Shown: positions 30,501 to 56,472, counted from the stretch's first letter. The stretch: 64,000 nt of DNA from an uncultured bacterium (GCA_963727525.1 CAVSGO010000007.1:2112001-2176000), one strand, 5' to 3'. Translations and numbers: made by a program. The notes: generated by a model from the letters alone, not told the origin.

Positions 30501-31643
30501 CTAGAACCGATAACTCGCCGCCAGCCCCGTCGTTGACGGCATCCGCTCCGACGGCACCACGACTACCGTGCCGCCCTTGTCCAGTACCAGTTCAGCCAGG
30601 TCGTCCAGCATGTCATCGACTTCCGGGGACTGCAAGTCGCCGGTACGGACGGCGCCTGTGGTTCCGTCGATCACGCCCGGAATGACACGGTCGGCCTCGA
30701 GCAAGAGCGTCTCCACTCGGCCGGCGACCGCCGCCTGGGCAACATCCAATAGGTCAGCCGAGCCGCTCTGCCTCGCCGCCGCGGTCCGGTAGCTCTCCCC
30801 GAGTTCGTCCAGCCGCGCCAGATAGTGCGGCTCCAGAACACTCCACGCCTGCTGCCGCAGGCTGTCATCCGACAGCGGCCGCGGATTGCCGTTGGTCCCG
30901 TCGGGCAGCAACAGCTTGTTCTGTGAAACGCGCCGGAAAAGCGCCTGGTGCTCGGGAAGCGCCGCGAGCATGACGGGCAGCCCCGACGGCCCGGAGAATT
31001 GCGCCGTGAACGCACGATCCACGGCCCGGAAGTATTTCTCGGTTTCGAGGTCATCCCGGCTTTCGCCATGCCCGTGCATGATCTTGGGGCTACCGACCCC
31101 ACCGCTCGAGCCGGCTACCGAAACTCGGGCTTCGGTCCGTTCGGCTATCGCCACCTGTTCCATGCGCGAGGGGAACGCGTCGGTCACCGGTTCCTCGTCC
31201 AGCGCGTAACGGTTACCGGCGAATACCACAGCGCTGTCCCTGGTCAGCGCCAGCACCTGGAAACGGTCTGCCGACTGCAAATACCGCACCAGCGGCTTGA
31301 TGTGAAAGCTGTTGGCGACAATCGCCAGTTCCGGAAATGTTCGCTGGACCTGGATGATCTCCAGTACGTCGGAACTGAGCAGGACCGCCAGACCGTCGCG
31401 CGTATGATTCCAGAAGCTCAGGTTCGTGGCCAGCTCCCGGAGCGGATCCAGTCGCTTTTCGACGTCCCGCAGCTCGGGGTGCAGTCGCAGCGACTCCTCG
31501 ACTGTCCGTATCAGGTTCCTGAACCGGACTGGATCCTGCTGGTTCTGGGGATGATGTCGGTGCGTCGGCTGGTAGATCGAAATGCACGGTGGGTCATGGA
31601 CTGCCATCAAAGAAGACAATTTGGCCGCAGTCAGTTGATACAC
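30501..31643 (-). CDS. baeRF3-family aeRF1-like protein (Balon-like)
   Basis: CISIYQPTHRHHPQNQQDPVRFRNL N-terminus; GRVETLLLE, DDMLDDLAELVL..GG C-terminus; no GGQ; GAAGGAG RBS before GTG 31643. Confidence 0.8.
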   Translation of the reverse strand: MYQLTAAKLSSLMAVHDPPCISIYQPTHRHHPQNQQDPVRFRNLIRTVEESLRLHPELRDVEKRLDPLRELATNLSFWNHTRDGLAVLLSSDVLEIIQVQRTFPELAIVANSFHIKPLVRYLQSADRFQVLALTRDSAVVFAGNRYALDEEPVTDAFPSRMEQVAIAERTEARVSVAGSSGGVGSPKIMHGHGESRDDLETEKYFRAVDRAFTAQFSGPSGLPVMLAALPEHQALFRRVSQNKLLLPDGTNGNPRPLSDDSLRQQAWSVLEPHYLARLDELGESYRTAAARQSGSADLLDVAQAAVAGRVETLLLEADRVIPGVIDGTTGAVRTGDLQSPEVDDMLDDLAELVLDKGGTVVVVPSERMPSTTGLAASYRF

Positions 31644-32090
31644 GGGAACTCCTTCGGGCTGGCGCCCTGAAATGCTTTCGGGCTCTACCACATTGTAAGC
31701 CAAGCATTTGCCGTCCGCTCTCGAAGTTCGTCCACTATCACCATGGTGCTTTTCGCCGACATTCCCGAAAGCCGCACGACGGTCACCGACGGCGTATTCA
31801 GCCCCGGCAGTGATGGCGAAACGATTTTCCAGGGTAGAGGTTCTCCGCCCCGATCAGCCCCCGAGAACCTCGCGGTTTCGCGGGTGAGACGCTCGAGACG
31901 CCGCGATGGATGGCATCGATGCCGGGATTTCGCGCCCACCGCGCGGACTTCTCCGTCCGGCCTGCCGCCTGGCCTCGGATCAGCGCAGACGGAGCTAGTG
32001 GAAGGCACAGTTCAAGATTGGCAGATCGCTGACGATCATGTTCAGATACGTGCCTGATCGCCGGCCCCGCTCGCCCAGGAAGCTATTTTC

Positions 32091-32531
32091 ATGGACCTCA
32101 TCCATCTCATCTACTGCAGCGCCGCGAGCAATCCCGACCTGAGTCTCGACGAGATCGATACGATCCAGAAGAAGAGCCGCGCCAACAATGCCGAGGTCGG
32201 CATCACCGGGATGCTGCTCTTCGATCAGGGTTCTTTCTTCCAGGTGATCGAGGGCGAGCGCGCGGTCGTCGAGGCCCTGTTCGAAGTGATCTGCGAGGAC
32301 GAGCACCACACGAACGTCGCCAAGATCTTGCTCGAGTCGATCGAGGCACGCGACTTCGGCGACTGGACCATGGGCCTGTCCCGCCTGACCCGCGATGATT
32401 TCGCGCAGATTTCCGGCCTCAACGACTTCTTCGTTGCCGGCCGATCGTTCCAAGACCTGGGCGCCGGTCGCGCACGCACCCTGCTGGCGGCCTACAAGGA
32501 CGGTCGCTGGCGTGCGTCGCTCAGCAGATAG
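32091..32531 (+). CDS. Stand-alone BLUF blue-light sensor
   Basis: LIYCS (Tyr), SRANN, GITGML, FFQVIEG (Gln), RDFGDWTM (Trp/Met). Confidence 0.92.
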   Translation: MDLIHLIYCSAASNPDLSLDEIDTIQKKSRANNAEVGITGMLLFDQGSFFQVIEGERAVVEALFEVICEDEHHTNVAKILLESIEARDFGDWTMGLSRLTRDDFAQISGLNDFFVAGRSFQDLGAGRARTLLAAYKDGRWRASLSR

Positions 32532-32551
32532 CGCTGCAGATCGAGCCAGGC

Positions 32552-32980
32552 TTACAGGTCGCCCGCCTCGCGACGTTCCAGGTTCCCGCGCGGTGCTTTG
32601 AAATACCGATCACCGCCCTGTTCGATCTCCCAGTAATTGAGCAAGGTGTCGGCGGCCGCAACTTCAAAGACCAATCTGTTCTCGAGACGACGTTGGAAAT
32701 ATCCGAACCTCGGATCAGCGTCCATCTTGTACACATAGGCAATGCCGGACCACGGTTTGCCCACCGCCCCACCCCCCTTGACTTCGAATATCTCGTGCGG
32801 TACGCCCAGCAAGAGTCGCACCTTTGACACCGGCATGCCTCGCTCGAGCTTGTCCACCGTCGGTTGCGCAACGGGATCGTAATACCGAATTCCAGGCGAC
32901 GGCGCGCAACCGGCCACGACCAGGAACCCGGCCACCAATAAACCGCCCGACGCCGCCAATACGTTTCGACGACTCATCAC
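32552..32980 (-). CDS. Small lipoprotein (SmpA/BamE-like fold possible)
   Basis: Lipobox VVAGC; KLERGMPVSKVRLLLGVP pattern; overlaps protease stop. Confidence 0.65.
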   Translation of the reverse strand: MMSRRNVLAASGGLLVAGFLVVAGCAPSPGIRYYDPVAQPTVDKLERGMPVSKVRLLLGVPHEIFEVKGGGAVGKPWSGIAYVYKMDADPRFGYFQRRLENRLVFEVAAADTLLNYWEIEQGGDRYFKAPRGNLERREAGDL

Positions 32981-34410
32981 ATATCCTCCCGACTTCTCAC
33001 ATGATCCTCGTCGGCGGCCAGGCTTGAAACCGTATCGAGTCTCTTGACGAAGAGATACTGGTCGAAATCAAGGGCGATCCGTTCGAGAATCGGCTGTGGA
33101 ATCATATAATCCAGCGTGTCCGCCGGCGCGCGCGCGTCGAGGATGTGCATATCGAGCTTTGGCCAACCGGACTTGGTCGGCAGGAATGGCTCGACCGTAT
33201 AGGCAAAGATACCCGAGCGCGCGAGGTCGTCTCCGCTTGCCGAAACCCAACCCGACTGCGCGTAGAAATTCAGCGGCACCAGGCTGATGCCGCGCTGGCA
33301 GTCGTCTATCGCCCGATCGCCACAGGAGAGCCAGAAGTCGCCGAGATCGCCCTTGAACTCGAGAGTGTGGTGAGCGGTGCCGAGCAGCGCGGCAGAAAAC
33401 GCCGACCCAATAGCGCTTCCTGTCGTTTCACCGATCCGCGGCAGAACCTGGAGAATGACGACGGGGCGCAAGCCGTTCGTATACTGCATCCACGATCGCA
33501 TATCGGAGATAGGATCACTGTCGTAGGGAGACGCGCTCCCATCACCTTCGGAATGAAGGCGCACCGAACGCCGGATCTCCTGGCGATTGGCCCGCCAGAA
33601 CATCTCCGGTGGCGTATGAACCGCGAAGATGAAGTCGCCCTTTTCGAAAGAATATCGCTCGATCGGCCATTTCGTGGACTTGGCAACCTTCTGGAGGGCC
33701 ACCGGAGGAAACAGCTCCTTGGGCATGGTCGGGTAGGTCTTCGCGTCAGGTGCGGAAGCGTGCGCCAGGGCAACGCTGATCTCGTCGCGCAAGGCATTCA
33801 ACAATCCGACACTGATGCTCCCCGAGATACCCGGTCCACCGGCGCCGCTGAAATCACCAAATGTATTGATGGCGACCACTTCACCATCGAGATTGATCAG
33901 CGGACCACCTGAGTTGCCGTGGTTGATATTCACGTCGGTAATCAGCGCCTCGGATTCCACCTTGGAAATGACGCCGATCGTCATGATGCGATCCTGGTTG
34001 AGAGGACTGCCAATGGCGAACACGCGTTCGCCAACAAATGCGTAATCAGCGCCGGCCGCGGAGAGTGGCAAGACCGGGCAGGCCTCACAGGATTGCGGAG
34101 CGATGCGGATGACCCCGATGTCGTTGGCCGCGTCGCGCACCAACACCTGGGCCGCCACTTTGAGACTGTCGTTCAACTGGACGAAGACGTGCTTTCCGTC
34201 ACCAATGACGTGCGCATTGGTCGCGACGACGCCGGCATGATCGATTAAGAACCCCGACCCTTTGCCGTCTTCGCTATAAACCGTGAACACCCCATCGCGC
34301 AGTTTCTGGAACAGCTCGGCTTCTTCGCTCATCCGGCGTTCCGCCGAGGCATGGGGCCCGCTCACGGCGACTGCCAAGGCGACACATAATACAGACATTC
34401 GCGTCTTCAT
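32977..34410 (-). CDS. Secreted trypsin-like (S1C/HtrA-type) serine protease without PDZ
   Basis: Signal peptide; catalytic triad motifs TNAHVI, NDIGVI, NHGNSGGPL; lower GC than flanks. Confidence 0.88.
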   Translation of the reverse strand: MKTRMSVLCVALAVAVSGPHASAERRMSEEAELFQKLRDGVFTVYSEDGKGSGFLIDHAGVVATNAHVIGDGKHVFVQLNDSLKVAAQVLVRDAANDIGVIRIAPQSCEACPVLPLSAAGADYAFVGERVFAIGSPLNQDRIMTIGVISKVESEALITDVNINHGNSGGPLINLDGEVVAINTFGDFSGAGGPGISGSISVGLLNALRDEISVALAHASAPDAKTYPTMPKELFPPVALQKVAKSTKWPIERYSFEKGDFIFAVHTPPEMFWRANRQEIRRSVRLHSEGDGSASPYDSDPISDMRSWMQYTNGLRPVVILQVLPRIGETTGSAIGSAFSAALLGTAHHTLEFKGDLGDFWLSCGDRAIDDCQRGISLVPLNFYAQSGWVSASGDDLARSGIFAYTVEPFLPTKSGWPKLDMHILDARAPADTLDYMIPQPILERIALDFDQYLFVKRLDTVSSLAADEDHVRSREDM

Positions 34411-38680: not shown

Positions 38681-38758
38681 GGTGAGAGGGGTGTGAGGGT
38701 TGGGCGAGGCCGCCTCGCTCGCTCGAAGGCCTCGCCCAACCCTCACACCCCTCTCACC
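38681..38758 (-). repeat. ~80-bp palindromic element, copy 2
   Basis: Perfect 31-bp inverted repeat with 16-nt loop (minus strand TTCGAGCGAGCGAGGC); overlaps the RND stop codon. Confidence 0.85.
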
Positions 38759-41700
38759 CCTGCACCTCCACCTTCGACGGCACGATCATGTAAACTGCGG
38801 GAATCACGACCAGCGTCAGCAGTGTCGACAGCACCAGCCCGCTCGCCACCGTGATCGCGAGCGGCGAGCGCAGCTCGGCGCCCTCGCCGAAGGCCAGCGC
38901 CATCGGCACCAGGCCGAGCACGGTGGTCGTGGTCGTCATGAGGATGGGGCGCAGGCGCACGTGGCCGGCGCGCACCACGGCCTCGGCCTTGCTCAGCCCG
39001 AGGCGCCGGAAGCGGTTGATGGCGTCGATGAGCACGATGGCGTTGTTCACCACGATGCCCACGAGCATCACGGCGCCGATGAGCACGATCACCGAGATCG
39101 GTGTGTGGGTGAAGATGAGGCCCGCCACCACGCCCACGAGCGCGAGCGGGATCGTGAACATCACGATGAACGGGTGGACGAAGCTCTCGAAGGTGGCGGC
39201 CATCACCAGGTAGACGAGGAAGATGGCCAGGGCGATAGCGAAGCGCAGGCTCTTGAAGCTCGTCTGCATCTCCTTGTTCTGGCCGCCCAGCTCCACGGTC
39301 AGACCATCCGGCGGCGGCGTGGCGCGCAGCACCGCCTGCACGTCGGTCACCGCGGCGCCGAGGCTGCGGCCGGCGAGGTTGGCCGTCACCACGGCGGCGC
39401 GCTGCTGCTGCAGGCGGTGGATCTCGGCCGGGCCGCGGCCGATGCTGACCTTGGCCACGCTCAGCAGTCGCAGTTGCTGTCCGTCGGATCCCGGGATCAC
39501 GAGATTTCGTACGTCGTCGAGCGACGCGCGGTCGGTCCCGCGGTTGCGGATACGGATGTCGATCTGGCGATCTGCCTCCTTGAACCGCGTGGGCACCGCG
39601 CCCTGCACGCGATTGCGCAGAGTCTGCGACAGCGCGCCCATGTCCAGGCCGAGGGACGCGAGCCGTCGACGATCGAAGACCACGCGCAGCTCCGGATTGC
39701 CGGCCTCGAGCGACGACCGTACGTCGGCCAGGCCAGGAACCGTGGCCAGAGCCGCGGCAAGGTCGAGGGAGTAGGCGCGCAGGGCGTCGAGATCCTCGCC
39801 GAAGATCTGCACCTCGATCGGCGTCTTCAGGCTGAAGTAGCTGGGGCGGCCGAACTTGGCCTCCAGGTCGGGAATGTCGGCGAACTGGCGGCGCATGCGC
39901 CCGGCCACCGCCTCCTCACCCGCCTCGCTCTGGCGGTTGCGCAGCACGACGTTGAGCTGGGCCAGGTTCTCGGCCTTGGTGTTCACCGACACGCCGCCCG
40001 ACGGCAGCCGGCTGCCCACCGTCACGTAGGTGCGCGCCACGGCCGAGTCGGCGTCGGCGATCGCCTCCATGCGATTCATCACGGCGTCGGTGGCGGCGAG
40101 GCTCGTGCCCTCGGGCATGGCGACCTCGAAGTAGAACTCGCCCTCGCTCAGCGCCGGAATCAGCTCCGTGCCCACGAAGCGGAGCGACCACAGGCTCGCC
40201 GCGAAGAGACCGAACGCCACGACCACCGTGAGCCAGCGCCGCTTCAGGGCCCCACGCACCATCTGGTCGTACACGCGGCCGAAGCGGCCGAGCCGCACCT
40301 CGGGTTCGTGATCGTGATCCGTGAGAGCGGGCGCCGGTACGCCGGCGGCCACGAGGCGCCGATCACCGCCGAGACCGCTGAGCATGGGGATCAGCGTGAG
40401 CGCCACCACGAGCGAGGCGAGCAGCGAGAACGTCACCGTGAGGGCCTGGTCGCGGAAGAGTTGGCCCGCCACGCCCTCCACGAACACGATGGGCAGGAAC
40501 ACGGCCACGGTGGTGAGGGTCGACGCGGTGACGGCAGCGCCCACCTCCTGCGTGCCGTCCACGGCCGCCAGGGCCGGGTCGATGCCGGCCTGCCGTCGGC
40601 GGTGGATCGCCTCGAGCACCACGATCGAGTTGTCCACGAGCATGCCGATGCCCAGCGTGAGGCCGCCGAGCGACATGATATTGAGCGAGATACCGAGGCG
40701 ATACATGAGCACGAATGTCGCCACCACCGAGATGGGGATGCTGGTGGCGATGATCAGCGTGCTGCGCCCCTCGCGCAGGAAGAGGAAGAGCACGAGCACG
40801 GCCAGGAGCCCGCCGAGCAACGCGGCATCGCGCACCTCCTTCACGGCGCGGGCGATGAAGCGTGACTGGTCGAAGAGCACCACCAGCTCGTCGCCGGGAG
40901 GCAGCTTGCCGTGCTGCCATTCGGCGATGCGCGCGGCGAGCGTGCGCGCCACGGTGACGGTGTTGGCGTCGCCCTCCTTGTAGATCGCGATCTCCACAGC
41001 CTCACGGCCGTTCACGCGCATGATCTCCTCGCGCTCCTTCGTACCCCAGGTCACCGTCGCCACGTCGCCCACGCGCACCTGGCGGCCGTTCTCGTCCTGC
41101 ACCACGAGGTTGGCGATCTCGTCCACGTCGTCGTACTCGTTCACCGTGCGGATGAGGAACTGGTTGTCGCGCCCGCGCAGCACGCCGCCCGGCAAATTGA
41201 GGTTGCCGGCACCCACCACCGCGCTCACGCGATCGAGCGGGATGCCGAGCGCAGCCAGCCGCTCCTGGTCCACGGCGATCTGGATCTCCTCCTCGAGCCC
41301 GCCCTTGACCTGGGCCGCGGCCACGCCCGTGAGCGTCTCGAAGTCCTGCTTGATCTGGCGATCGGCCACGCGGCGCAAGGAGGTGAGGCTGTCATTGCCC
41401 GTGAAGGCGAGTCGCATGATGGGCTCGAGGCTGGGATCGAAGCGCAGGATCAGCGGATCCGCGGCCTCGTCGGGCAGGATGAGGCGGTCGAGCTTCTCGC
41501 GCACGTCGAGTGCGGTGAGCTCCATCTTCGTGCCCCAGTCGAACTCAAGCGTCACCTCGCTCACGCCCGCGCGCGAGACGGAGTGGATGCCGGTGAGGCC
41601 GCGCAGCACGCCCACGGCCTCCTCCACCGGCCGCGTGACGAGGTTCTCCACCTCCTGGGGCGCGGTGTCGGGGAACTCGGTCTGGATCGTCAGCGACGGG

Positions 41701-41828
41701 TACGAGATGTCGGGGAACAGCTCCAGCGCCAGGCGCTGATAACTCACCCAGCCGAATGCGAGCACGGCGATCGTCGCCATGACGACGCTCACCGGACGCC
41801 GGACCGCGAGCGCGATGAGTCCCCGCAT
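38754..41828 (-). CDS. RND efflux permease (AcrB/AcrD/AcrF family)
   Basis: 1024 aa; GMLVDNSIVVLE, GIVVNNAIVLID, RLRPILMT. Confidence 0.94.
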   Translation of the reverse strand: MRGLIALAVRRPVSVVMATIAVLAFGWVSYQRLALELFPDISYPSLTIQTEFPDTAPQEVENLVTRPVEEAVGVLRGLTGIHSVSRAGVSEVTLEFDWGTKMELTALDVREKLDRLILPDEAADPLILRFDPSLEPIMRLAFTGNDSLTSLRRVADRQIKQDFETLTGVAAAQVKGGLEEEIQIAVDQERLAALGIPLDRVSAVVGAGNLNLPGGVLRGRDNQFLIRTVNEYDDVDEIANLVVQDENGRQVRVGDVATVTWGTKEREEIMRVNGREAVEIAIYKEGDANTVTVARTLAARIAEWQHGKLPPGDELVVLFDQSRFIARAVKEVRDAALLGGLLAVLVLFLFLREGRSTLIIATSIPISVVATFVLMYRLGISLNIMSLGGLTLGIGMLVDNSIVVLEAIHRRRQAGIDPALAAVDGTQEVGAAVTASTLTTVAVFLPIVFVEGVAGQLFRDQALTVTFSLLASLVVALTLIPMLSGLGGDRRLVAAGVPAPALTDHDHEPEVRLGRFGRVYDQMVRGALKRRWLTVVVAFGLFAASLWSLRFVGTELIPALSEGEFYFEVAMPEGTSLAATDAVMNRMEAIADADSAVARTYVTVGSRLPSGGVSVNTKAENLAQLNVVLRNRQSEAGEEAVAGRMRRQFADIPDLEAKFGRPSYFSLKTPIEVQIFGEDLDALRAYSLDLAAALATVPGLADVRSSLEAGNPELRVVFDRRRLASLGLDMGALSQTLRNRVQGAVPTRFKEADRQIDIRIRNRGTDRASLDDVRNLVIPGSDGQQLRLLSVAKVSIGRGPAEIHRLQQQRAAVVTANLAGRSLGAAVTDVQAVLRATPPPDGLTVELGGQNKEMQTSFKSLRFAIALAIFLVYLVMAATFESFVHPFIVMFTIPLALVGVVAGLIFTHTPISVIVLIGAVMLVGIVVNNAIVLIDAINRFRRLGLSKAEAVVRAGHVRLRPILMTTTTTVLGLVPMALAFGEGAELRSPLAITVASGLVLSTLLTLVVIPAVYMIVPSKVEVQG

Positions 41829-42988
41829 CAGGCGCCGCCTTCACGCGGTTCGCCGCTGGCGGTGGCCGTCGTGTCGGCGAGCACCTTGAGGAACGACCCG
41901 GGCTTGAGGGAGCGCTGCCCCTTCACGACCACACGGTCGCCCGTGTCCAGGCCGGATGTGATCTGCGCGTGGTCGTCGTCGAGGAATCCCACCTGTACCA
42001 CGCGGCGCTCGGCGGTGGGCGGGTCACCCGCAACCACGGTGTAGACGACCGACTCTGTCTTGTCGGTGACCACCGCCGTGCGAGGTACGAGGATGGCGTG
42101 CGGCCGCTTCTCGGTGGTGATGCGCACCGAGGCGAAGTCGCCGGGGCGCGTGTCCCGCGGGTATTCGGGCACCTCGATGGTGAGCTTGATGGTGCCGCTC
42201 GTGGGGTCGATGATCGGGCTGACCAGGGCGATCGTGCCCGCGAGGTGCGCGCCGTCGCTGTCGAGCACCAGCGTCACGTCCTGGTTCACGGCGAGCTGGC
42301 GGAATTCGCGGCTGGGCACGTAGACGCGCGCGAGCAGCGGATGGAAGTCGCCCACCGAGAACAGGGCCGTGCCCTCGCTCACGTTCTGTCCCACGTCCAC
42401 GAGGCGGCGCGTCACCTGGCCGTCGAACGGCGCCACCACGGTGGTGTACTGCAGCGTGAGCCGCGCGAGGCCCTCCATCGCCTCGGCGTCGGCCAGCTCG
42501 CTCTTGGCCGTCTCGAACTCGGCCTCGGAGGCGAGCTGCTGGTCGACCATCTGCTGCATGCGGCCAAAGGCGGCGCGAAGCTGCGCCGTGCGCGCGGCTG
42601 CCTGCTCCACGCGCAGGCGGTACTCGCCGTTGTCGATGCGCAGCATCGGTTGGTTCTCGCGAACCTCGTCGCCCTCCTCCACGAGGATCTCCTGCACGAG
42701 GCCCCCGACGCGCGCCAGCACGTCAGCCTGTTTCTGTGCCTCGAGACTGGCCGTGGCCTCGTAGTAGCTGGCTATCGGTCCCGTGATCACCGGCACCGCC
42801 GCCACCGGGATGGGATGCTCGCGGTCGGGAGCATCCTCGTTGCCCGAAGCTGCGGCGGCATCGCCGGCCGGCCCCGACTTTCCACCGTGGCCACATCCGG
42901 TGAGCACGAGGGCGAGGAATAGCCCGCCGAATAGGCAGGCGCGCGCGAACTTTCGGGGCGCAAACTTCCGGGATACGGACAAGGACAT
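41828..42988 (-). CDS. RND periplasmic adaptor (MFP), lipoprotein
   Basis: LTGC lipobox; GLVQEILVEEGD lipoyl half-motifs, alpha-hairpin, VVAPFDG; TGATG overlap with permease start. Confidence 0.92.
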   Translation of the reverse strand: MSLSVSRKFAPRKFARACLFGGLFLALVLTGCGHGGKSGPAGDAAAASGNEDAPDREHPIPVAAVPVITGPIASYYEATASLEAQKQADVLARVGGLVQEILVEEGDEVRENQPMLRIDNGEYRLRVEQAAARTAQLRAAFGRMQQMVDQQLASEAEFETAKSELADAEAMEGLARLTLQYTTVVAPFDGQVTRRLVDVGQNVSEGTALFSVGDFHPLLARVYVPSREFRQLAVNQDVTLVLDSDGAHLAGTIALVSPIIDPTSGTIKLTIEVPEYPRDTRPGDFASVRITTEKRPHAILVPRTAVVTDKTESVVYTVVAGDPPTAERRVVQVGFLDDDHAQITSGLDTGDRVVVKGQRSLKPGSFLKVLADTTATASGEPREGGA

Positions 42989-43069
42989 GGAATACCTCGA
43001 CTTCACCGGGTGCTGGTGGCGACCTCGACGGTCCAATATCGGGTGCTCACGGAGAGAATGCCAAGCCGT

Positions 43070-45853
43070 TCAGCGGGATGCCAGGCCGGGCGACCGCAAG
43101 CTGAGCGTATACGCCGCCCAGCTGAAGGGGTTTCGCATGGATCCATCCGGCCCGCGTAGCGCCTGGCGCTGGGACCGCCCCATGGCCGCCGGAAGGGGCA
43201 GCCCCTCCTGCAGCCAGCCGCGTAGACAAGTGTCGAGGAGGGTGGCTGGCTCGTCGTCGCGCACGCGCCAAAGTGTCACCAGGACTGCCTCGGCCCCCGC
43301 ATCGACAAAGGCGTCGCCGAGGCTGGGCGCCGTGGTCTGCCCGCTCACGTACGGCGCTCCGCTCGCGCAGCTCGCCAGTACGGCCAGGCGCACGCGGGTC
43401 AGATCGGTCGCGCGGATGTCGGTGACGTCGAGCACCCCGCTGGCACTGGCGATCCCGGAGTCCGTGTCGGGACTCAGGGGCAGGAACGTACGGTACGGCG
43501 CCTCCGGGCTGCGCACGGTGTGGCAGGCAAAGTAGAGGCAATCGACGTCCTCCCATACGGCGCGTAGCGCCGTGAGCGAGGCCGCCGCGCCCTGCAACGT
43601 GCGGGCGTGCGGGAGAAGCGTCGCCACATGCGTGGCCTCGGCCGAGCTGCCCGCCAGTTCGGCCAGCCCGGGGTAGCGTCGGCGCAGGCGTGGCGCGAGA
43701 TCCGGCGCCGCGACCACGAGGCTCGATCGTGGCGCGCCGGTCGCCGTCAGCGGTCCGCAGCCGCGCACGGAAGCCACGTCGCACCGTTCGACGAGGGGCA
43801 CGTATCTTGGCGGCGTATCCACGTCGAGCGCAGCGAATGGCAGCAAGGCGAGGGCGCCGAATGCCGAGACCAGCACGACCCGCGGCGTCGTGTCCGCGGC
43901 GAGCAGGTCCGACGGCAACAGCACCTCGGCCAGATCGCGAGCCCGCGCCACGAGTTCCGGCGAGACGGGCGCCCGGGCATTCCCCGGATCCCGTGACATC
44001 AGCGCGAGGGCCCCCGCGATCTGGTTCGCGAGCATGTCGACGCTCACGCCCAGGGTGTCGCAGGCCACGCCGTCACCGGAAGCCGTCCAGCGCAGCACGC
44101 GCTCGCCTTGCGGCGAGTACACCAGGTGCACGGCGTCCGCCGCGCGCAACTGGGCACGCGCATCCCGGGCGAGGACGCCGATCTCGCGGCGCAGCTCCGC
44201 GGGCGATCGGGGGGCCGCGACATCGCGACCGCCAAGCCACCCCGGCAGGCGCTGCCACATCAACTCGAGGCCGTAGCCCGCGGATGTATCGTTCGCGAGA
44301 AGGCCGTGCAGCGCGCAACGCAGTTCCTCGGCCCGATCGATGTCGATGTACGCCCGGGCGCTCGCATCCGAATGTTCGAGATCGTCGACCACGAGGCCGA
44401 GTCCGCGCACGAGCGCGGCAGCCGCCGAGTCGGGCCGTTCGACGGCCAGGCGGGACGCCAGCACGCAGGCCGACAGCCGCAGATCGTCCACCCAACCCGC
44501 ATGCCGAGCCGCGCCGGTCGCGTACTGGGCCAGGGCATCGCGCGCGGCCGCCGTATCGCCACAGGCAAGGCTCGCCGTGGCTTCGTACAGGCGGAAGCGC
44601 ACGAGCATCTCCGGCAGCGGTACATACTCCGCATACGCCACCGCCTCGTGCGCCGCGGCGAGCGCGAGTTTCGGATATCCGGCTGCCAGAAGACCGCGGC
44701 TACGGAAGTCGTGAACGTAGGCGGTTTCCTCGAAGGGGAGCTTTTCCGTGGCTGTGAGGAGGCTGGGATAGATCGCCTCTGCCTCGGCCACCCGACCCTG
44801 CCCGAGCATGGCGCGCGCGTGCAGTTCCTCGATCCGTAGCTCCTCGCGCCGCACGCGCACGGGATCATCCGACAGACCGGCCGCCACGCCGGCTCGGGCT
44901 TCGGTCACGAGCACCCGGGCGTGCTCCAGTAGCGCTTCCACGCGATTCCAGTCGTGGATGATCGCGTAGAATCGCGCCAGCATCACGAGATAAGGCAGAC
45001 CGAGCGCGGCCTGACCGAGGTCGCGGCAGACGCTGACCGCCTCCTCGAGATAGTCACAGCTCTGTCCGAAACGGCCCACCTGATGCGCGTGCACGCCCGC
45101 GATGGCGTAGGCGCGCCCCGCGTGTCCCGCGAGGCGCGATTCGCGCGCGATCTGGAGCGCCTCGTCGAGGCGGACGGCCACGTCGGCATCCGATTTCGAA
45201 ACATCGTGCATGGCCAGCGAACTGAGGGCGTTACACATGGCGATGCGCAGTTCGGCCCGGCGCGCATCGGCAAGCGCCTCGGCGAACCATCGGCGTGATT
45301 CGTCGGTCTTGCCGCGCTTGATCGCGTTGGCCGCGAGGTCTCTCTCGGCACCAACGACGCCGAAAGCGTAGTCGCGCTGCCGGAAATAGTCGAGATCACG
45401 GATCAGGCTGTCACGCGAGGCTTCGGGATCGTTGGCACCCTCGCCGAAGGCGATGGCGAGCTGCCTCAGCCGCGCCGCCATGTCGCGCCGGTCGTCGCGC
45501 GGCAGCCCGGCCAGATAGGTCGCATCACGCGCGTACTCGGGTAGCAGGTATTCCCGGGCCAGGACGGCTGCGATGCGATCCATCGCTGGCAAGAGCACGG
45601 TCTCGTCGTCAGCCGGATGCCGCCCCAGCTCCTTGCGCACTGCGGTGTATATATTCACCGATGCCTCGGCGCCGATCTCGCGCAGCGTCGCCGTCAAGGC
45701 GCGCTCGTCGTCGCCTAGGATGACGCGTCGGGTGGACGCATCGAAGCCCGCGAGCGCAGTGTCATCCCGCGCGGTACCTGGAGACAGGTGACAGGCCGGC
45801 CACGCCGCGACTGCACAGACGAGGAAAACGAGCGTCGAGCGGGTGAACGTCAC
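43070..45853 (-). CDS. Exported TPR + CHAT (caspase-like) protease
   Basis: CHAT dyad YFACH / LASCASG; AFVDAGAEAVLVTLWRVRD; NPFSWAAY; hydrophobic N-terminus; GAAGGGAG RBS before GTG 45853. Confidence 0.85.
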   Translation of the reverse strand: MTFTRSTLVFLVCAVAAWPACHLSPGTARDDTALAGFDASTRRVILGDDERALTATLREIGAEASVNIYTAVRKELGRHPADDETVLLPAMDRIAAVLAREYLLPEYARDATYLAGLPRDDRRDMAARLRQLAIAFGEGANDPEASRDSLIRDLDYFRQRDYAFGVVGAERDLAANAIKRGKTDESRRWFAEALADARRAELRIAMCNALSSLAMHDVSKSDADVAVRLDEALQIARESRLAGHAGRAYAIAGVHAHQVGRFGQSCDYLEEAVSVCRDLGQAALGLPYLVMLARFYAIIHDWNRVEALLEHARVLVTEARAGVAAGLSDDPVRVRREELRIEELHARAMLGQGRVAEAEAIYPSLLTATEKLPFEETAYVHDFRSRGLLAAGYPKLALAAAHEAVAYAEYVPLPEMLVRFRLYEATASLACGDTAAARDALAQYATGAARHAGWVDDLRLSACVLASRLAVERPDSAAAALVRGLGLVVDDLEHSDASARAYIDIDRAEELRCALHGLLANDTSAGYGLELMWQRLPGWLGGRDVAAPRSPAELRREIGVLARDARAQLRAADAVHLVYSPQGERVLRWTASGDGVACDTLGVSVDMLANQIAGALALMSRDPGNARAPVSPELVARARDLAEVLLPSDLLAADTTPRVVLVSAFGALALLPFAALDVDTPPRYVPLVERCDVASVRGCGPLTATGAPRSSLVVAAPDLAPRLRRRYPGLAELAGSSAEATHVATLLPHARTLQGAAASLTALRAVWEDVDCLYFACHTVRSPEAPYRTFLPLSPDTDSGIASASGVLDVTDIRATDLTRVRLAVLASCASGAPYVSGQTTAPSLGDAFVDAGAEAVLVTLWRVRDDEPATLLDTCLRGWLQEGLPLPAAMGRSQRQALRGPDGSMRNPFSWAAYTLSLRSPGLASR

Positions 45854-46030
45854 GGATGGAGCTCCCTTCCCTGGTGTGATGATAAGCCGAAGGGCCGCCG
45901 CGACCAAGCCCGATGACCACCCCTGGCCACCGGCGATCGCCTGTGCTAGCATGCGCGCGTTGCACCGCGATTCCAGGCCCGCAGCCCTGAACCGACAGAC
46001 ACGGACGGCCCAGCCAGTACGGACGAAGGC

Positions 46031-46882
46031 GTGAGCGAAACACCGGCCAGCCACACCGATGATCTGGAACTCGCCCGCGCGATCATCGCCGACGACGAGG
46101 ACGCCTGGCATCGCTTCGTGACCGAGCGCTCGGGCGTGATTATCGCCGTCCTGCGCCGCTATATCTTCGATGACGACGACGTGCGCACCGTGTACGTCGA
46201 TCTCCTCGCGTCGTTGCGCCGGGGGCGCCTTGCCGACTTCGCGGGCTTTTCGTCGCTCACCACCTGGCTCGTGTGTCTCGCGCGCGGTGCGGCGGCCGAT
46301 CACCTGCGCCATACGCTCGGGCGGCGACAGGAACCGGCGGGACTCGAGTCGCTCGACGCCGTGCAACGCGAGGCCTTCCGGCTCTACCATGTCGAGGGGC
46401 TCGCCTATGACGACGTGCTGCTGCGGCTGCGCCAGGCCGGCTTGCTGGACCGCGAGACGAGCCTGGCGGAGATCCTCGCAGCCATCGAGAACCGGCTCAC
46501 CGCCCGGACGTTGCGGCGCGTGGCGTGGGATCTGCATGCCGCCTCTGTGGGAGCCGCCTCGGGCCGGCTCCTGCAATATCTCGACGCCGCGGCCCGGGAC
46601 GCGGAGGATCGCGCCTCCCGTGCGAACCCGGAGTCCGAGCTGATCGCCCGCGAAGCCCGGCGCACGCTCGAACGCGTGCATGAACTCGTGGACCAGCTCC
46701 CCGAGGAGGAGCGGCGGGTGCTCACCCTGCGATTCGACGCCGGCTGGACGGCCGACGAGGTCGCCGCCGAGCTGGGCCTGCCCGACCGGCGGCGCGTGTA
46801 CACGATCGCCGACCGAGCCCTCGCCAGGCTCCGTCGCTGGCTCCATGTCACCATCCTCGTTGCCATTATCGTGTTGACGTAG
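46031..46882 (+). CDS. Atypical long ECF-type sigma70 factor
   Basis: Region 2 (DAWHRFV..SSLTTWLVCLARGAAADHLR) and region 4 (QLPEEERRVLTLRFDAGWTADEVAAELG). Confidence 0.82.
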   Translation: MSETPASHTDDLELARAIIADDEDAWHRFVTERSGVIIAVLRRYIFDDDDVRTVYVDLLASLRRGRLADFAGFSSLTTWLVCLARGAAADHLRHTLGRRQEPAGLESLDAVQREAFRLYHVEGLAYDDVLLRLRQAGLLDRETSLAEILAAIENRLTARTLRRVAWDLHAASVGAASGRLLQYLDAAARDAEDRASRANPESELIAREARRTLERVHELVDQLPEEERRVLTLRFDAGWTADEVAAELGLPDRRRVYTIADRALARLRRWLHVTILVAIIVLT

Positions 46883-46988
46883 GTTGACGACAGGAGAGGA
46901 CCGGGAATATCCTGGGCGTATCCGACCAACCGCTGCCGGATGCCCACGAAGAGGTCCGCCTCTCCCCGATCGAGGTGTGACGTTGCCG

Positions 46989-47876
46989 ATGATTTCGCGA
47001 CATTGCGACCCCAATGACCTCGCTGCCCTGGCCGAGGGCCGCGAGCCTGCCGGAAGCGACAACCTACATGCCCATCTGGCGCAGTGCCGGACCTGTCTGG
47101 CGACGTATGCCGAGGCCGTGCGTGTGGCGCACCGGACGGCCGCGGGCGTTCCCGGCGAAACCGTACCGCGGACCTGGCTGAGCGAGGCCCTCGCCGCCGG
47201 CGCGAAGCCGCAACGGGCGAACGTGGGCGTACCCCGGCGCGTCTGGGTGCCGGCCGTGGCGGTGTTCGTGCTCGCGCTCGTGTGGTTCGTCGCACCGACG
47301 AACCGCAGCGGCGAACTCACCGGCGACCAGATCGGGACCATCAGTCTGGCGCTGCGCGAGCAGTCGGTAGCGGGGCCCGTGTTCCCCGGCGTCTCGCCCG
47401 ACCAGCCCGACAACCCGACGGTCTATCGTTCGGGTAACTCGCCGGCGGACGACGTCTCGGCAATCCTGCGCGGTCAGGCCGGACGGCGCCAGTCGGTGCC
47501 GGCGGATCCAGAATCGGCCTACTGGCTCGCCGCCGGCTACCTGGCCGCGGGTCAGATCGGAACCGCCACCGACCTCGTGCGTCTCGCCCGCCAGACCTAT
47601 CCCCAGGATCGTCGCCTGCTCATCCTCGACGCCCTGGCTGCATATCGTCGCAGCGAGTTGACGCGCGCGGAATCGCTCCTGCATCAAGCCCTCGACCGCG
47701 ACCCCACCGACGACGTGGCGCGTTTCGATCTCGCGGTGATCCTGCAGGACGCCGGCCGCACGTGGGAAGCGCGCCAGTTGCTGGCGGCCGGCGCCTGGCC
47801 CGCCACCGAACTCCTCTCCCGCCGCGCCCAGGCGTTGCGAGACACGCTCCACACCGCCGCCGGCGGCCGCCCCTGA
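46989..47876 (+). CDS. Putative anti-sigma factor: zf-HC2 motif, TM helix, extracytoplasmic TPR
   Basis: HLAQCRTC (Hx3Cx2C), TM VWVPAVAVFVLALVWFV, TPR-like C-terminus; start may be 46977. Confidence 0.78.
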   Translation: MISRHCDPNDLAALAEGREPAGSDNLHAHLAQCRTCLATYAEAVRVAHRTAAGVPGETVPRTWLSEALAAGAKPQRANVGVPRRVWVPAVAVFVLALVWFVAPTNRSGELTGDQIGTISLALREQSVAGPVFPGVSPDQPDNPTVYRSGNSPADDVSAILRGQAGRRQSVPADPESAYWLAAGYLAAGQIGTATDLVRLARQTYPQDRRLLILDALAAYRRSELTRAESLLHQALDRDPTDDVARFDLAVILQDAGRTWEARQLLAAGAWPATELLSRRAQALRDTLHTAAGGRP

Positions 47877-50047: not shown

Positions 50048-52528
50048 ATGGCGCCCCTCTTTCCCTGGTTCTTCGCCCTCCTCATGCACGGCTCCGGCCC
50101 GGCCCTGTCATCCCCCGCGGCGCTCGAACACGAGACGGGCACGGCCGAGGCCGAACGCGGCCCGGAGCTGATCCGGGAGTACTTCGAGAACTGGCACGCG
50201 CCCTATCCCGGGGATCTCGGTCGCGATCTGCAGGAACGGATCTGGCGCGCAGTCCACGACGTGCCGACCGAGGCGCCCCTCCTCGACGGCGACGGCTGGG
50301 TCCCCTACGGCCCCTTCGGCATGCTCACCGACCTCGGCGCGCGCCACGCCGGCCGCGTGCTCGATCTGGATGTGGGTCCCGGCGGATTGCGACGTATCGC
50401 GGCGGCCAGCGGAGGTGTGTGGGAATTCGCCGATGGCCGCTGGCGCCCCCTCACCGAGACGCTCACGACCCAGTGGATCGGCGCGCTCGCCACGAGCCCG
50501 ACCGATGCCGACCTCATCCTCGTGGGCACGGGCGAACCGTTCATCCGCGCCGGCACCGGACTGTGGCGTTCCACCGACGGCGGCGCCTCCTGGACGGCGC
50601 ACCCGCTGCCGGCGAGCCCGGCCACCTGCTTTCGCCTGCGGTTCCTGCCCGACGGCCAGACCGTGGTGGGCGCGTTCGACCTTGGTCTCTATCGCTCCAC
50701 GAACGCCGGGCTCACCTGGACCCGAACCGACCTGGGAAACTGGCCCACCGATCTGGCGGTCAATCCGAGCGACCCACACGAGCTGTGGACGACGGTTTGG
50801 GCCAACGGTCTCCGCGTGAGCCACGACGCCGGCGTCACCTGGCAGCCGGTGACCGCTCCGGGACTGCCCACCGCGAACCTGGGCCGCGGCGCCGTGGCCG
50901 TGGCCGCCTCGAACCCCGACCGTATCTACGTGGCATGGGCCGGGCAGGACAACCTGCTCCTGGGGCTCTACCGCAGCGATGACGGCGGCGCCACCTTCGC
51001 CGACGTCTCCCCTCCCGAGTACCTCTGGGGCCAGGGCTGGTACAACAACACCCTCGGCGTGGCCCCCGACGATCCCGACCTGGTGCTGGCCGGCGGTGGC
51101 GCCCTCATGCGCACCACGGATGGCGGACGCTCGTGGGAGGCGGTCGCGTCGCCGCACGTGCACGCGGACAACCATGCCGTGAGCTGGTCGAGCGACGGAG
51201 CGCACCTCTGGGTGGGGACCGACGGCGGCGTGAGCGAGTCCGACGACGACGGCCTCACGTGGAACACCACGGACAATCGTCTGCCGATCACGCAGTTCGT
51301 CAACATCGACGCGGGTGACACGGCCCCCCTCCTGCTGAGCGGTGGCTCGCAGGACAATGCCGTCTCCGTGAGTACCGACGGCGGCGCCACCTGGTTCATG
51401 CGCTGGGGCGGCGACGGTGGCGGCATCTCGATCGACCCCCACGACAACGACCACATCTGGGCCACCAGCGGCGTATGGGGCGGACCGCTCGCCTTCCACT
51501 GCGGCTACTCCCAGGACCGCGGCGTCACCTGGCAAGACATCAACAACGGCATCCAGCCCTCGGACCAGTGGTACACGCGCATCCGCAACGATGGCGGCGA
51601 CGGCACACCGGTGGTCTACATGAACAGCAGCGCCCACGTGTACTGGTCGTTCGGCGGGCTCTTCTGGTTCTGGCTCAATCACGATCCGTTCACGTCCAAC
51701 GTGACGGAGCTCACGGTGTCGGGGTTCGTGGACCCGCGCGCAATCGTCTACGCCTGCCTCGACTCCTTCACGCCCGGCGCACGCCTGCAGGTCTACGAGG
51801 ATCCGAACTGGTTCGAACGCTCGTCGTCGCTACCCGATGGCGTGCGGGTACGCAAGGTCGCGGTGGATCCCGCCAGCACCGAGCGCTGCTTCGCGATCAT
51901 GGGCGGCATGGGCACGCCGGGGCGGAAGGTGTTCCGCAGCGAGAATCGCGGGGCCACGTGGATCAACATCACGGGCAATCTTCCGGACATCCCGATGTCC
52001 GACCTCCTACCCGACCCCGGCAATCCGGACGAGTTCTACCTCGGCACGGAGTTCGGCTGCTACCGCACCACGAACGGCGGCGCGGCCTGGCAACGCTGGA
52101 ACGATGGATTGCCCGAGGCGGCAGTGGTCACGGAGATGACGTTCGCCGATCTCTCCGCCGACACGGGCGAGGTCTTTGTGGTCGCGGCCACCTACGGCCG
52201 CGGCCTCTGGATGCGCCGCATCGCCGGCGTGGCGCCCACCGCGACCCCGGACCTGCAGACCGTGGTCGGTGTGCAGCTCCACGCTCCGGTACCGAACCCG
52301 GCCCACGCCGAGACGCAGTTGAGCTTCGCCCTGACCCGGGACACCACGGCACGCCTGCGCGTGTTCGACGTGCGCGGCGCCCTCATCGCCACACTGCTCG
52401 ACGGGCCGGTGAGCGCGGGCCGGCACACCTTCGCCTTCCAGACCGGGCGCGTGGCCGCGGGCGTCTACCTCTGCCGGCTCGACACGCCCCTCGGCTCCAG
52501 CACGCGCCGGTTGCTCGTGATCCGCTAG
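50048..52528 (+). CDS. Secreted BNR/Asp-box beta-propeller protein (VPS10/GH74-like) with T9SS-like C-terminal domain
   Basis: Repeated SxDGGxTW Asp-boxes; C-terminus PNPA..VFDVRGALIATL..AAGVYLCRL. Confidence 0.85.
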   Translation: MAPLFPWFFALLMHGSGPALSSPAALEHETGTAEAERGPELIREYFENWHAPYPGDLGRDLQERIWRAVHDVPTEAPLLDGDGWVPYGPFGMLTDLGARHAGRVLDLDVGPGGLRRIAAASGGVWEFADGRWRPLTETLTTQWIGALATSPTDADLILVGTGEPFIRAGTGLWRSTDGGASWTAHPLPASPATCFRLRFLPDGQTVVGAFDLGLYRSTNAGLTWTRTDLGNWPTDLAVNPSDPHELWTTVWANGLRVSHDAGVTWQPVTAPGLPTANLGRGAVAVAASNPDRIYVAWAGQDNLLLGLYRSDDGGATFADVSPPEYLWGQGWYNNTLGVAPDDPDLVLAGGGALMRTTDGGRSWEAVASPHVHADNHAVSWSSDGAHLWVGTDGGVSESDDDGLTWNTTDNRLPITQFVNIDAGDTAPLLLSGGSQDNAVSVSTDGGATWFMRWGGDGGGISIDPHDNDHIWATSGVWGGPLAFHCGYSQDRGVTWQDINNGIQPSDQWYTRIRNDGGDGTPVVYMNSSAHVYWSFGGLFWFWLNHDPFTSNVTELTVSGFVDPRAIVYACLDSFTPGARLQVYEDPNWFERSSSLPDGVRVRKVAVDPASTERCFAIMGGMGTPGRKVFRSENRGATWINITGNLPDIPMSDLLPDPGNPDEFYLGTEFGCYRTTNGGAAWQRWNDGLPEAAVVTEMTFADLSADTGEVFVVAATYGRGLWMRRIAGVAPTATPDLQTVVGVQLHAPVPNPAHAETQLSFALTRDTTARLRVFDVRGALIATLLDGPVSAGRHTFAFQTGRVAAGVYLCRLDTPLGSSTRRLLVIR

Positions 52529-55509: not shown

Positions 55510-56472
55510 ATGAAACCCCTGAAGATCCGCATTCTCCTCGTCGTGCTCGCCGTGCTCCTGACCGCCAGCGCTGCGCTGGCGGCCGACGGCTGGCTCGGCG
55601 TCACGATGCAGGAGCTGAGTACCAACCTCGCCAAGGCCATGGACCTGGAGAATGCCGACGGCGTACTCGTCTCGTCGGTCGTCGCCGAATCGCCTGCTGC
55701 CAAGGCCGGCCTGGAGGATGGCGACGTGATCGTGGCCTTTGGCGAGTCCGCCATCAAGTCCCCCGACGATCTCTCGCGCGCCGTGGCCAAGACGTCGCCT
55801 GGCGACAAGGTCAAGGTGCGCGTCATGCGTGGCGGCAAGGCGAAGTCCGTCAACGTCACCGTCGGCGAACGCGAGGAGTCGGATGACGACAATCCCATGC
55901 TGCGCTGGTTCGACGATACCGGTCATCAACGCATGATCATCCGCAACCTGCATAACGGCGGATACCTCGGCGTCGGCCTGCAGGATCTCACCGATCAGCT
56001 CGGCGAGGTCTTCGGCGTGAAGGACGGCAAGGGTGCGCTGGTCACGGAGATCGCGGATGACGCGCCGGCGGCGAAGTCCGATCTCAAGGCGGGCGACATC
56101 ATCGTGACGTTCGGCGACGAGACCATTGGCGACAGTGACGACCTGCGCGATGCCGTGATGGACCGGAAGCCGGGCGACGAGGTGAAGGTGACCTACGTAC
56201 GCCAGGGCAAGACGAAAACCACCACAGTCACCGTGGGCGAGCGTCCCGAGGGCGACGACGCGATGTACTCCGTGCACCGCATGCTCAGGAAGCTGCCGCG
56301 CGCCTTGCAGTTCATGCCTCGCAACGACGCGCACCTACGTGCCTGGCACAACCGTGGTGACAACGCCGTGGCGCGCATCCAGGAAGAGAAGGAGCTGCAG
56401 GAGCTTCGCGAGGATCTGCAGGATCTGCGGACCCAGCTGGACGCATTGCAGAAGGAACTGAAGTCACGCTGA
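55510..56472 (+). CDS. Secreted tandem-PDZ protein with C-terminal coiled coil
   Basis: Signal peptide; two PDZ domains (GWLGV..SPAAKAGLEDGDVI; GYLGV..APAAKSDLKAGDII); heptad C-terminus. Confidence 0.88.
   Translation: MKPLKIRILLVVLAVLLTASAALAADGWLGVTMQELSTNLAKAMDLENADGVLVSSVVAESPAAKAGLEDGDVIVAFGESAIKSPDDLSRAVAKTSPGDKVKVRVMRGGKAKSVNVTVGEREESDDDNPMLRWFDDTGHQRMIIRNLHNGGYLGVGLQDLTDQLGEVFGVKDGKGALVTEIADDAPAAKSDLKAGDIIVTFGDETIGDSDDLRDAVMDRKPGDEVKVTYVRQGKTKTTTVTVGERPEGDDAMYSVHRMLRKLPRALQFMPRNDAHLRAWHNRGDNAVARIQEEKELQELREDLQDLRTQLDALQKELKSR

Follow-up and report, generated by a model that had tools for sequence, protein, structure and literature searches.

A 64,000-nucleotide stretch of DNA from an uncultured bacterium (GCA_963727525.1, CAVSGO010000007.1:2112001-2176000; this whole stretch is referred to below as the window) encodes, at 43070-47876, a conserved trio of genes: a tetratricopeptide-repeat (TPR)-CHAT protease with a predicted export signal, an extracytoplasmic function (ECF)-type sigma factor, and a transmembrane anti-sigma factor. 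The trio resembles DdvA, an anti-sigma factor of Myxococcus xanthus that carries a TPR-CHAT domain on the same polypeptide. Its novelty lies in the division of labor between two proteins and in its phyletic range, whereas CRISPR-independent coupling of a periplasmic TPR-CHAT domain to a sigma factor is already known. The three genes very probably work together in some way. In our assessment it is nearly an even call, tilted slightly to the negative side, that they form a split DdvA-like pathway in which the exported TPR-CHAT protease makes the site-1 cut on the anti-sigma factor, plausibly after Arg147, and intramembrane proteolysis follows.

Gene anatomy of the trio

The three genes described in the original prediction, and the features it gave them, are all present. 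The TPR-CHAT protease gene (43070-45853, minus strand; 927 aa with a GTG start) is defined by its open reading frame (ORF) and start codon, a Pfam CHAT match, AlphaFold2 modeling, and Foldseek. A divergent intergenic region of 177 bp (45854-46030) separates its start from that of the ECF-type sigma factor gene (46031-46882, plus strand; 283 aa), which is identified by NCBIfam, Pfam, and profile alignment. Next comes the gene for a zinc-type transmembrane anti-sigma factor with a periplasmic TPR domain (46989-47876, plus strand; 295 aa), delimited by homologue starts, alignment, AlphaFold2, and Pfam TPR matches.

The G+C content is ~70% across the window, so raw ORF lists are rich in shadow frames; the interval 43070-47876 holds three real genes. 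The CHAT gene sits inside a long minus-strand frame (43070-47413) and is best taken to begin with the GTG at 45853, with GGGAAGGGAG just upstream; the gene has a ~25-nt leader with a GGGAG-like site, and the database call for the same protein (P0001) is likewise 927 aa long. The anti-sigma ORF opens at 46884, and the real start is placed at the ATG at 46989 because the homologues begin there. In one related locus, L016 (10951-10990), none of the codons ATG, GTG, and TTG precedes the conserved N-terminus in the anti-sigma frame, where only ATC codons occur; this suggests that either the start codon is unusual or the assembly contains an error.

Conservation of the trio

Scanning genomes with a profile of the sigma factor returned 53 loci, of which 18 (L001-L018), with essentially full-length sigma matches, were kept. 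The other 35 matched only sigma-2 or sigma-4 (E 2e-6 to 1e-3), represent other sigma factors, and are left out of all counts. Across the 18 loci, which come from assemblies labelled with several candidate phyla (Krumholzibacteriota, Eisenbacteria, and others), the sigma factor is 39-66% identical to that of the window. An anti-sigma homologue lies directly downstream of sigma in 18/18 loci, always with an HxxxCxxC motif; L010 is truncated by a contig end. A CHAT gene stands beside the pair in 15/18 loci. In 14 of the 18 the TPR-CHAT protein has an orthologue that covers it in full (tblastn E no worse than 3e-52), divergent upstream as in the window in 13 of these 14. The remaining orthologue, in L009, follows the pair on the same strand, with a BNR/sortilin gene in between. 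L017 contains a different CHAT-domain gene, convergent with and abutting the anti-sigma gene (Pfam E 2.3e-58). L007 and L008 have TrkA/TrkH genes upstream and no CHAT gene within 10 kb on each side; L012 also shows none, its available upstream sequence being 2.4 kb long.

Clades common to the CHAT and sigma trees, the latter from a quick search only, are {window, L001, L002}, {L010, L011, L013}, {L014, L015}, and {L003, L018, L004, L005}. The loci without CHAT nest within CHAT-bearing clades, pointing to secondary loss or relocation. Clustering of all ORFs in the loci revealed no fourth conserved partner and no gene family shared beyond close relatives. Because it recurs in 15/18 related loci, the trio is seen as more than a chance neighborhood; with the congruent trees, this goes against the first of the refuting conditions set in the original prediction, genes not conserved together. 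L003 and L009 are paralogous trios from one assembly, one in divergent and the other in co-directional order, on separate branches in both trees.

The TPR-CHAT protease

The CHAT domain (PF12770) is recognized by Pfam at residues 637-918 with an E-value of 2.8e-39 and 135.7 bits against a cut-off of 24. Pfam and alignments together place this clan CD, caspase-like protease domain at residues 574-919 (43097-44134, minus strand). It follows an alpha-helical, TPR-like solenoid at residues 26-571 (44141-45778, minus strand), which is delimited by AlphaFold2 secondary structure and a profile search of the PDB and is a putative sensor or substrate-binding arm. The catalytic dyad consists of His778 (43520-43522) and Cys829 (43367-43369), both on the minus strand, and both are invariant in 16/16 aligned orthologues. 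When the best 150 relatives are aligned with the window protein, each dyad residue is kept in 151/152 sequences, and Asp866 (43256-43258, minus strand; 151/152), Gly853 (150/152), and Glu739 (149/152) are also near-invariant. The earlier description of an intact His-Cys dyad thus holds among orthologues and in the wider family alike, and the window protein is most likely, judging from its sequence, an active clan CD cysteine protease. As acidic residues, Glu739 and Asp866 would be in keeping with a pocket specific for Arg, which is only a lead.

The protein belongs to a large family. A word-indexed search gave an impression of rarity, with two close relatives, which was overturned when 1.84 billion representatives were searched exhaustively with a profile and 5,696 CHAT relatives emerged at E<=1e-30. 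The best 150 of these 5,696 (E<=1.9e-154, 596-1052 aa) match from near their own N-termini and are therefore stand-alone proteins like that of the window.

AlphaFold2 models the CHAT protein with a pLDDT (predicted local distance difference test) of 88.1 and a pTM (predicted template modeling score) of 0.86, as a helical solenoid followed by an alpha/beta domain at 574-919. This is the TPR-CHAT architecture of an N-terminal helical solenoid and a C-terminal caspase-like domain, supported by Foldseek matches at E 1e-14 to 1e-9. Against the PDB, human separase (9hma) gives the best E-value (1.4e-14), followed by the cryo-EM structures of DdvA (8rw5, 8rot_A; E ~1e-13) and the craspase protease Csx29 (8eey_B; E 1.5e-11). 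The template modeling (TM) scores of DdvA, 0.47/0.49, are the highest among the listed matches that cover the whole protein, with 18% identity over ~920 columns; among the matches listed, target-normalized TM-scores above those of DdvA belong to short TPR-only targets alone. The predicted fold is thus closest overall to the periplasmic domain of DdvA.

At the level of sequence, the link to separase and DdvA is faint. A phmmer search of the whole CHAT protein against PDB sequences returned nothing at E<=1. In the PDB profile search, the solenoid matches the TPRs of LGN/Pins, kinesin light chain, and MalT (E 1e-8 to 1e-6), the CHAT profile reaches separase at E ~2e-3, and DdvA is absent from the 60 best matches. 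Residues 808-881 align weakly to the catalytic segment of separase (E ~0.9), pairing the Cys829 motif and the LW.V.D motif.

Predicted export of the protease

The window protein begins with a hydrophobic stretch, MTFTRSTLVFLVCAVAAWPAC, that has no canonical lipobox; sequence and orthologue comparison mark residues 1-21 (45791-45853, minus strand) as a putative signal or anchor. Among the 14 locus orthologues, 11 have a short charged start, a hydrophobic run, and, as judged by eye, a lipobox-like xx[GAST]C motif, such as LTGC, VSGC, or FIGC. A hydrophobic N-terminus without a canonical lipobox characterizes the window, L001, L002, and L013. In the wider family, 112/150 representatives have a hydrophobic window, defined as a Kyte-Doolittle value of >=1.8 over 12 residues, within their first 70 residues, and many of the remaining 38 visibly start inside or past the signal.

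The lipoprotein-type signals of most orthologues suggest that the CHAT protease faces the periplasm. The family is therefore predicted to be extracytoplasmic, as a lipoprotein in most relatives, and the protein of the window's own clade is putatively signal-anchored or Sec-exported; for the window's member, a lipoprotein is possible too. The extracytoplasmic location put forward in the original prediction stands as a prediction, with 11/14 lipoprotein-type signals and 112/150 hydrophobic N-termini in its favor.

The anti-sigma factor and its periplasmic loop

The anti-sigma factor was aligned in 18 sequences, those of the window and 17 loci, which are 21-45% identical to the window protein. 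Nine residues are invariant in all 18: A12, H29, C33, C36, P133, R147, A193, A261, and R279. H29, C33, and C36 form the HxxxCxxC zinc motif HLAQCRTC (47073-47096, plus strand), and an upstream position, His5 (47001-47003, plus strand), reads as H in 16/18 and C in 1/18 sequences. With this upstream His/Cys and an N-terminal helical bundle, the protein has the features of a class I zinc anti-sigma (ZAS) domain; Pfam zf-HC2 does not match it at E<=0.01. The AlphaFold2 model (pLDDT 83.2) shows cytoplasmic helices at 8-15, 23-32, and 34-51, followed by a single transmembrane helix, which is assigned from sequence to residues 85-103 (47241-47297, plus strand) and modeled as a helix at 89-101. Residues 1-175 match nothing among PDB sequences at E<=10, and the anti-sigma profile search of the PDB is swamped by TPR proteins.

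The periplasmic part of the model opens with a helix (112-128), which a non-helical loop (129-151) separates from a second helix (152-164), and the TPR helices come after these. The TPR domain itself (residues 174-290; 47508-47858, plus strand) is supported by Pfam, AlphaFold2, and Foldseek, the last of which finds resemblance to the small peptide-binding TPRs of MamA, PEX5, and SycD. In the loop (47373-47441, plus strand), pLDDT falls from 74 to 59. Two of the invariant residues, Pro133 (47385-47387) and Arg147 (47427-47429), both on the plus strand, lie here and are the sole invariant periplasmic residues before the TPR repeats; invariance and the model mark the loop as a candidate cleavage or docking site. 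Its motif reads G-[LM]-[VI]-L-P-G ... [TV]-Y-R-[SAN]-G, with the halves split by a variable spacer. Arg147 is the arginine of PTVYRSG (47415-47435, plus strand), which the original prediction had placed in an outer linker; the motif is present, but the segment is a loop between two predicted helices rather than a free linker. In L004 (6354-7460) and L005 (7562-8644), the anti-sigma factor carries a Gly/Ser/Pro-rich insertion of ~50-57 aa between the LPG and YRNG halves.

The sigma factor

The sigma factor scores 53.4 bits against NCBIfam TIGR02937 (sigma70-ECF; cut-off 42.9), and Pfam recognizes region 4 alone. A profile of 32 homologues run against the PDB aligns positions 14-105 with sigma-2 of AlgU/RpoE (E 6e-13) and 203-279 with sigma-4; sigma-2 and sigma-4, placed by Pfam and profile alignment, correspond to 46070-46345 and 46637-46867 on the plus strand. 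Between them, the homologue alignment defines a conserved insert of ~95 aa (residues 106-200; 46346-46630, plus strand), which is unusual for an ECF sigma factor and carries a near-invariant block, RTLRR.AWDLHA.SVGAASGRLLEY. The ECF family given in the original prediction is therefore confirmed by the above-cut-off TIGR02937 score, but the insert sets the protein apart from a minimal ECF sigma factor. The insert has no Pfam or PDB match, and the idea that it is a duplicated sigma-4 was rejected, with a BLASTP E-value of 15 against the protein's own sigma-4.

The homologue alignment also delimits a C-terminal tail of the sigma factor (46844-46879, plus strand), HVTILVAIIVLT, which is short and strongly hydrophobic. 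Similar tails occur in about ten homologues (P0008, P0014, P0016, P0017, P0019, P0021, P0024, P0025, P0027, and P0029), and others lack one. The word-indexed protein set contains 36 relatives of ~280 aa, one of them named Krumholzibacteria. Comparison with the PMC7826278 supplement yielded no numbered ECF group for the sigma factor.

Relation to known systems

The closest published counterpart is DdvA, which according to PMC11506125 (2024) is a transmembrane anti-sigma factor that joins a zinc domain of the CHCC type to ~900 residues of periplasmic TPR-CHAT, and whose partner is the ECF sigma factor DdvS. A CRISPR-independent, periplasmic TPR-CHAT system has thus already been published there, and a 2018 paper (PMC6061681) had attributed a possible role to the CHAT and TPR modules. 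The original prediction withstood three of its four refuting conditions, those on conservation, predicted export, and the dyad, and is partly supported; the principle is less novel than it assumed, being partly anticipated by DdvA. When the TPR-CHAT domain is removed, DdvA is degraded by RseP; the authors of that work propose that a signal-activated CHAT domain cuts its own linker in trans within a dimer as the site-1 cut, and state that validation was not possible (PMC11506125).

DdvA and the window trio have in common a zinc-type anti-sigma domain at the N-terminus, a single membrane helix, an ECF partner, and a TPR-CHAT part with a His-Cys dyad, which is periplasmic in DdvA and predicted to be so in the window. 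DdvA differs in being one fused polypeptide, whereas in the window the TPR-CHAT protein is separate, predicted to be exported on its own, and encoded on the opposite strand, and the anti-sigma factor has a small TPR domain of its own. DdvA, which lacks a three-helix motif, controls a CBASS/CRISPR island, in contrast to the window trio, which has no flanking defence genes. The fused form is reported in PMC11506125 only in Myxococcota and one Comamonas, whereas the split form occurs in the assemblies labelled Krumholzibacteriota, Eisenbacteria, and others. The window trio is not a DdvA-type fusion, and the best 150 CHAT representatives are likewise stand-alone. Among longer, potentially fused anti-sigma relatives, the 120 of 174 matches listed are generic TPR proteins, none with PF12770, in a search swamped by TPRs.

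Craspase, the type III-E CRISPR system in which Csx29 cleaves Csx30 in the cytoplasm and thereby releases a sigma factor (PMC10028731, summarized in PMC11506125), likewise couples a TPR-CHAT protease to the release of an ECF-type sigma factor, and the fold similarity to Csx29 (8eey_B) agrees with this likeness. Craspase is, however, cytoplasmic and activated by the RNA-guided Cas7-11, and Csx30 is not a ZAS transmembrane protein. The CHAT protein of the window, by contrast, carries a predicted export signal, and no cas genes occur among the scanned window ORFs; the trio thus differs from a type III-E craspase, which is defined by Cas7-11/gRAMP, a CRISPR array (no search here was aimed at arrays), and a cytoplasmic location.

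The PMC7826278 supplement, citing Huang et al. 2015, notes CHAT(+TPR) neighbors of the ECF54 sigma factors of Actinobacteria, a conserved sigma-CHAT(+TPR) association with a suggested part in regulation or response. As described there, ECF54 has no recognizable anti-sigma factor, is accompanied by subtilase and carboxypeptidase-regulatory-like genes, and has CHAT at position +3 or -2. The window trio, compared by context and not by sequence, differs in possessing a ZAS anti-sigma factor and in lacking conserved ECF54 partners: across the loci, only sigma, anti-sigma, and CHAT are conserved.

In the RseA-DegS-RseP pathway, as presumed for the window trio, a single-pass anti-sigma factor controls an ECF-type sigma factor and a periplasmic site-1 cut licenses a site-2 protease. 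The candidate site-1 enzyme of the window differs from DegS in being a clan CD cysteine protease with a TPR arm that is encoded with the pair, rather than an unlinked PDZ serine protease. Separase resembles the CHAT protein in combining a TPR-like solenoid with a caspase-like domain, gives the best Foldseek E-value, and cuts after Arg; it is nevertheless eukaryotic, cytoplasmic or nuclear, and far larger, with low TM-scores (0.29). Separase, gingipain-R, and MALT1, all of clan CD, cut after Arg by means of acidic S1 residues (PMC4626109).

The literature searched, whose coverage leaves out most subscription papers, contains no description of a stand-alone periplasmic TPR-CHAT protein paired with an anti-sigma factor of ZAS, transmembrane, and TPR parts. 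In two of the hits, PMC8103513 and PMC9308784, 'CHAT' is an author name and not the domain.

Proposed mechanism and alternatives

At rest, a split DdvA-like pathway would keep the sigma factor at the inner membrane, bound by the zinc domain on the cytoplasmic side of the anti-sigma factor. The single-pass anti-sigma factor would present to the periplasm its small, peptide-binding-type TPR domain, preceded by the Pro...Tyr-Arg-Ser-Gly loop, and the long TPR solenoid of the exported CHAT protease would gate the active site. On sensing a protein signal in the periplasm, the CHAT protease would clip the periplasmic part of the anti-sigma factor, most plausibly after Arg147, thus acting as a dedicated site-1 protease, and intramembrane and cytoplasmic proteolysis would next free the sigma factor. 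The module would be the two-polypeptide ('split') counterpart of fused DdvA. Along this path we infer the binding of sigma by anti-sigma, the contact between CHAT and the anti-sigma factor, the site of the cut, the signal, and the regulon; the cut itself we infer purely. A bolder version, in which the trans-acting periplasmic CHAT lipoprotein is a dedicated site-1 protease that cuts after the bait-loop Arg, the split module is the widespread ancestral form (the CHAT family numbers thousands of relatives, in Krumholzibacteriota, Eisenbacteria, and beyond), and the narrowly distributed fused DdvA is derived, is possible, with the balance clearly against it.

Several points weigh against the proposed pathway. 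L004 and L005 are near-identical, so that the 18 loci hold fewer than 18 independent cases. Export is judged by eye from sequence, and the window N-terminus has no canonical lipobox. Pro133 and Arg147 are equally invariant in the three loci without CHAT in the fetched flanks; since the motif is kept there, the loop may be a site for another protease or for a contact within the molecule. The helices flanking the loop are predicted confidently (pLDDT ~90), so that one cut alone might leave the TPR domain attached. CHAT proteases do not share a single P1 preference, craspases cutting after Met or Leu (PMC11506125), and Arg is thus not predicted from family membership. The autoproteolysis model is unproven even for DdvA, and neither the window scans nor the clustering of locus ORFs found a site-2 protease gene linked to the trio. 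A complex prediction for CHAT residues 28-927 with anti-sigma residues 104-175 scored 0.00, with an uncertain partner fold and without controls, and speaks neither for nor against binding.

Four other explanations of the neighborhood were considered. The CHAT protease could act upstream of the anti-sigma factor by cleaving itself or a third periplasmic protein, be it a pro-ligand, a foreign protein, or a damaged one; the anti-sigma TPR domain would then read the product or the substrate-loaded CHAT protein, and a general site-1 protease would cut the conserved loop. The resemblance of that TPR domain to peptide-binding TPRs, the invariance of the loop motif in the three loci without a CHAT neighbor, and the sheer size of the CHAT family, whose 5,696 members (the best 150 stand-alone) are compatible with substrates other than anti-sigma factors, all fit this explanation. 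We regard it as unlikely: the tight, mostly divergent adjacency and congruent trees favor direct partnership, no conserved third gene emerged from ORF clustering in the loci, and in fused DdvA the CHAT active site faces the anti-sigma factor's own linker (PMC11506125). A shielding role in the manner of RseB is quite improbable. A non-catalytic, protective CHAT protein would dock on the loop or the TPR domain of the anti-sigma factor and keep a general protease away until displaced by a signal, as might suit a long TPR solenoid, these being protein-binding scaffolds, and the bulky TPR-CHAT domain of DdvA does block access of RseP (PMC11506125). Retention of the His-Cys dyad and other active-site-region residues in 151/152 sequences is, however, hard to explain without catalysis.

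Divergent genes beside ECF operons are often members of the regulon, and the CHAT lipoprotein could accordingly be an output of the system, with the sigma factor activating the divergent promoter and the protease acting on envelope or foreign proteins. The efflux operon that follows CHAT after 33 bp in the window, L001, and L002 would suit such a role. Against this, the upstream regions share no bipartite motif above shuffled controls (3/18 vs 3), boxes of the housekeeping kind before both genes suggest constitutive leaderless transcripts (weakly, being read by eye), and the architecture of fused DdvA puts CHAT in the sensing part of the pathway; an output role appears rather improbable. That the neighborhood is fortuitous and the three genes functionally unrelated is scarcely credible: the 3/18 loci without CHAT in the fetched flanks would allow it, but CHAT lies alongside in the other 15 despite sigma identities of 39-66% and a spread over several candidate phyla, with the same orientation in 13 and congruent trees.

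Intergenic region and neighboring genes

Boxes of the form TAnnnT face both genes in the 177-bp spacer: TAGCAT on the sigma side, 78 nt ahead of the start, and TATCAT on the CHAT side, 25 nt ahead of the start. Read by eye, 5/14 loci (L001, L002, L009, L014, and L015) have a TAnnnT box at a distance of exactly 6 nt from the CHAT start codon, and such a box precedes several sigma starts (L002, L003, and L016) by 7-14 nt. These spacings weakly suggest leaderless or near-leaderless transcripts. A promoter consensus scan of the spacer found no site, and the best bipartite motif shared by sigma- and CHAT-upstream regions occurred in 3/18 sequences, equal to the shuffle maximum of 3. In L018 (~7115-7713), L004, and L005, the divergent intergenic regions are long (335-597 bp) and full of short tandem repeats; in L018, the frame leading into the CHAT signal peptide translates them as repeated VPRA.

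Downstream of CHAT on the same strand, after a 33-bp gap, lies a resistance-nodulation-division (RND) efflux pair consisting of a membrane-fusion protein (41828-43036) and a pump (38754-41828). This order is lineage-specific, being found in the window, L001, and L002 only, and co-transcription of CHAT with the RND genes is possible. Exported proteins of the BNR/sortilin type, whose C-terminal domain is a sorting or FlgD-Ig domain, are encoded near the trio in the window (50048-52528) and, in L009 (3629-5131), between anti-sigma and CHAT; such a gene could be a regulon member or a coincidence. At 55510-56472, 7.6 kb from the trio, the window encodes a protein of 320 aa that has two PDZ domains, lacks a recognizable protease domain, and is not conserved in the other loci.

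PADLOC and the window ORF scans gave no match to Cas, CBASS, or other defence models for the trio or its neighbors, CRISPR arrays not having been a target of the search, and a defence-island link like that of DdvA was rejected on the PADLOC result. The nearest defence-type match in the window is a Fic-domain protein (828-1991; PADLOC SoFic model, E 4.9e-115), ~41 kb from the trio. Elsewhere in the window, at 30001-34000, G+C drops to 0.60-0.64 against ~0.70 in the rest and few ORFs are confident; a BLUF photoreceptor gene (32091-32531) lies in this stretch.

Implications

Bacterial CHAT and other caspase-like proteases are widespread, yet few have a known substrate, and DdvA is the sole precedent for a periplasmic CHAT domain in sigma-factor signaling. 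Self-cleavage of DdvA is hard to test because a single chain, with no known signal, is both protease and substrate. With a natural two-protein version, the unproven idea that CHAT releases a sigma factor becomes directly testable: the split module offers a separable protease and substrate, an invariant candidate scissile Arg, and Cys and His residues defined by alignment. Confirmation alone would not reveal the signal or the regulon. If the proposed pathway is true, a caspase-family enzyme would join the few site-1 proteases known from regulated intramembrane proteolysis, and the principle known from DdvA would reach from a few Myxococcota to several little-studied phyla.

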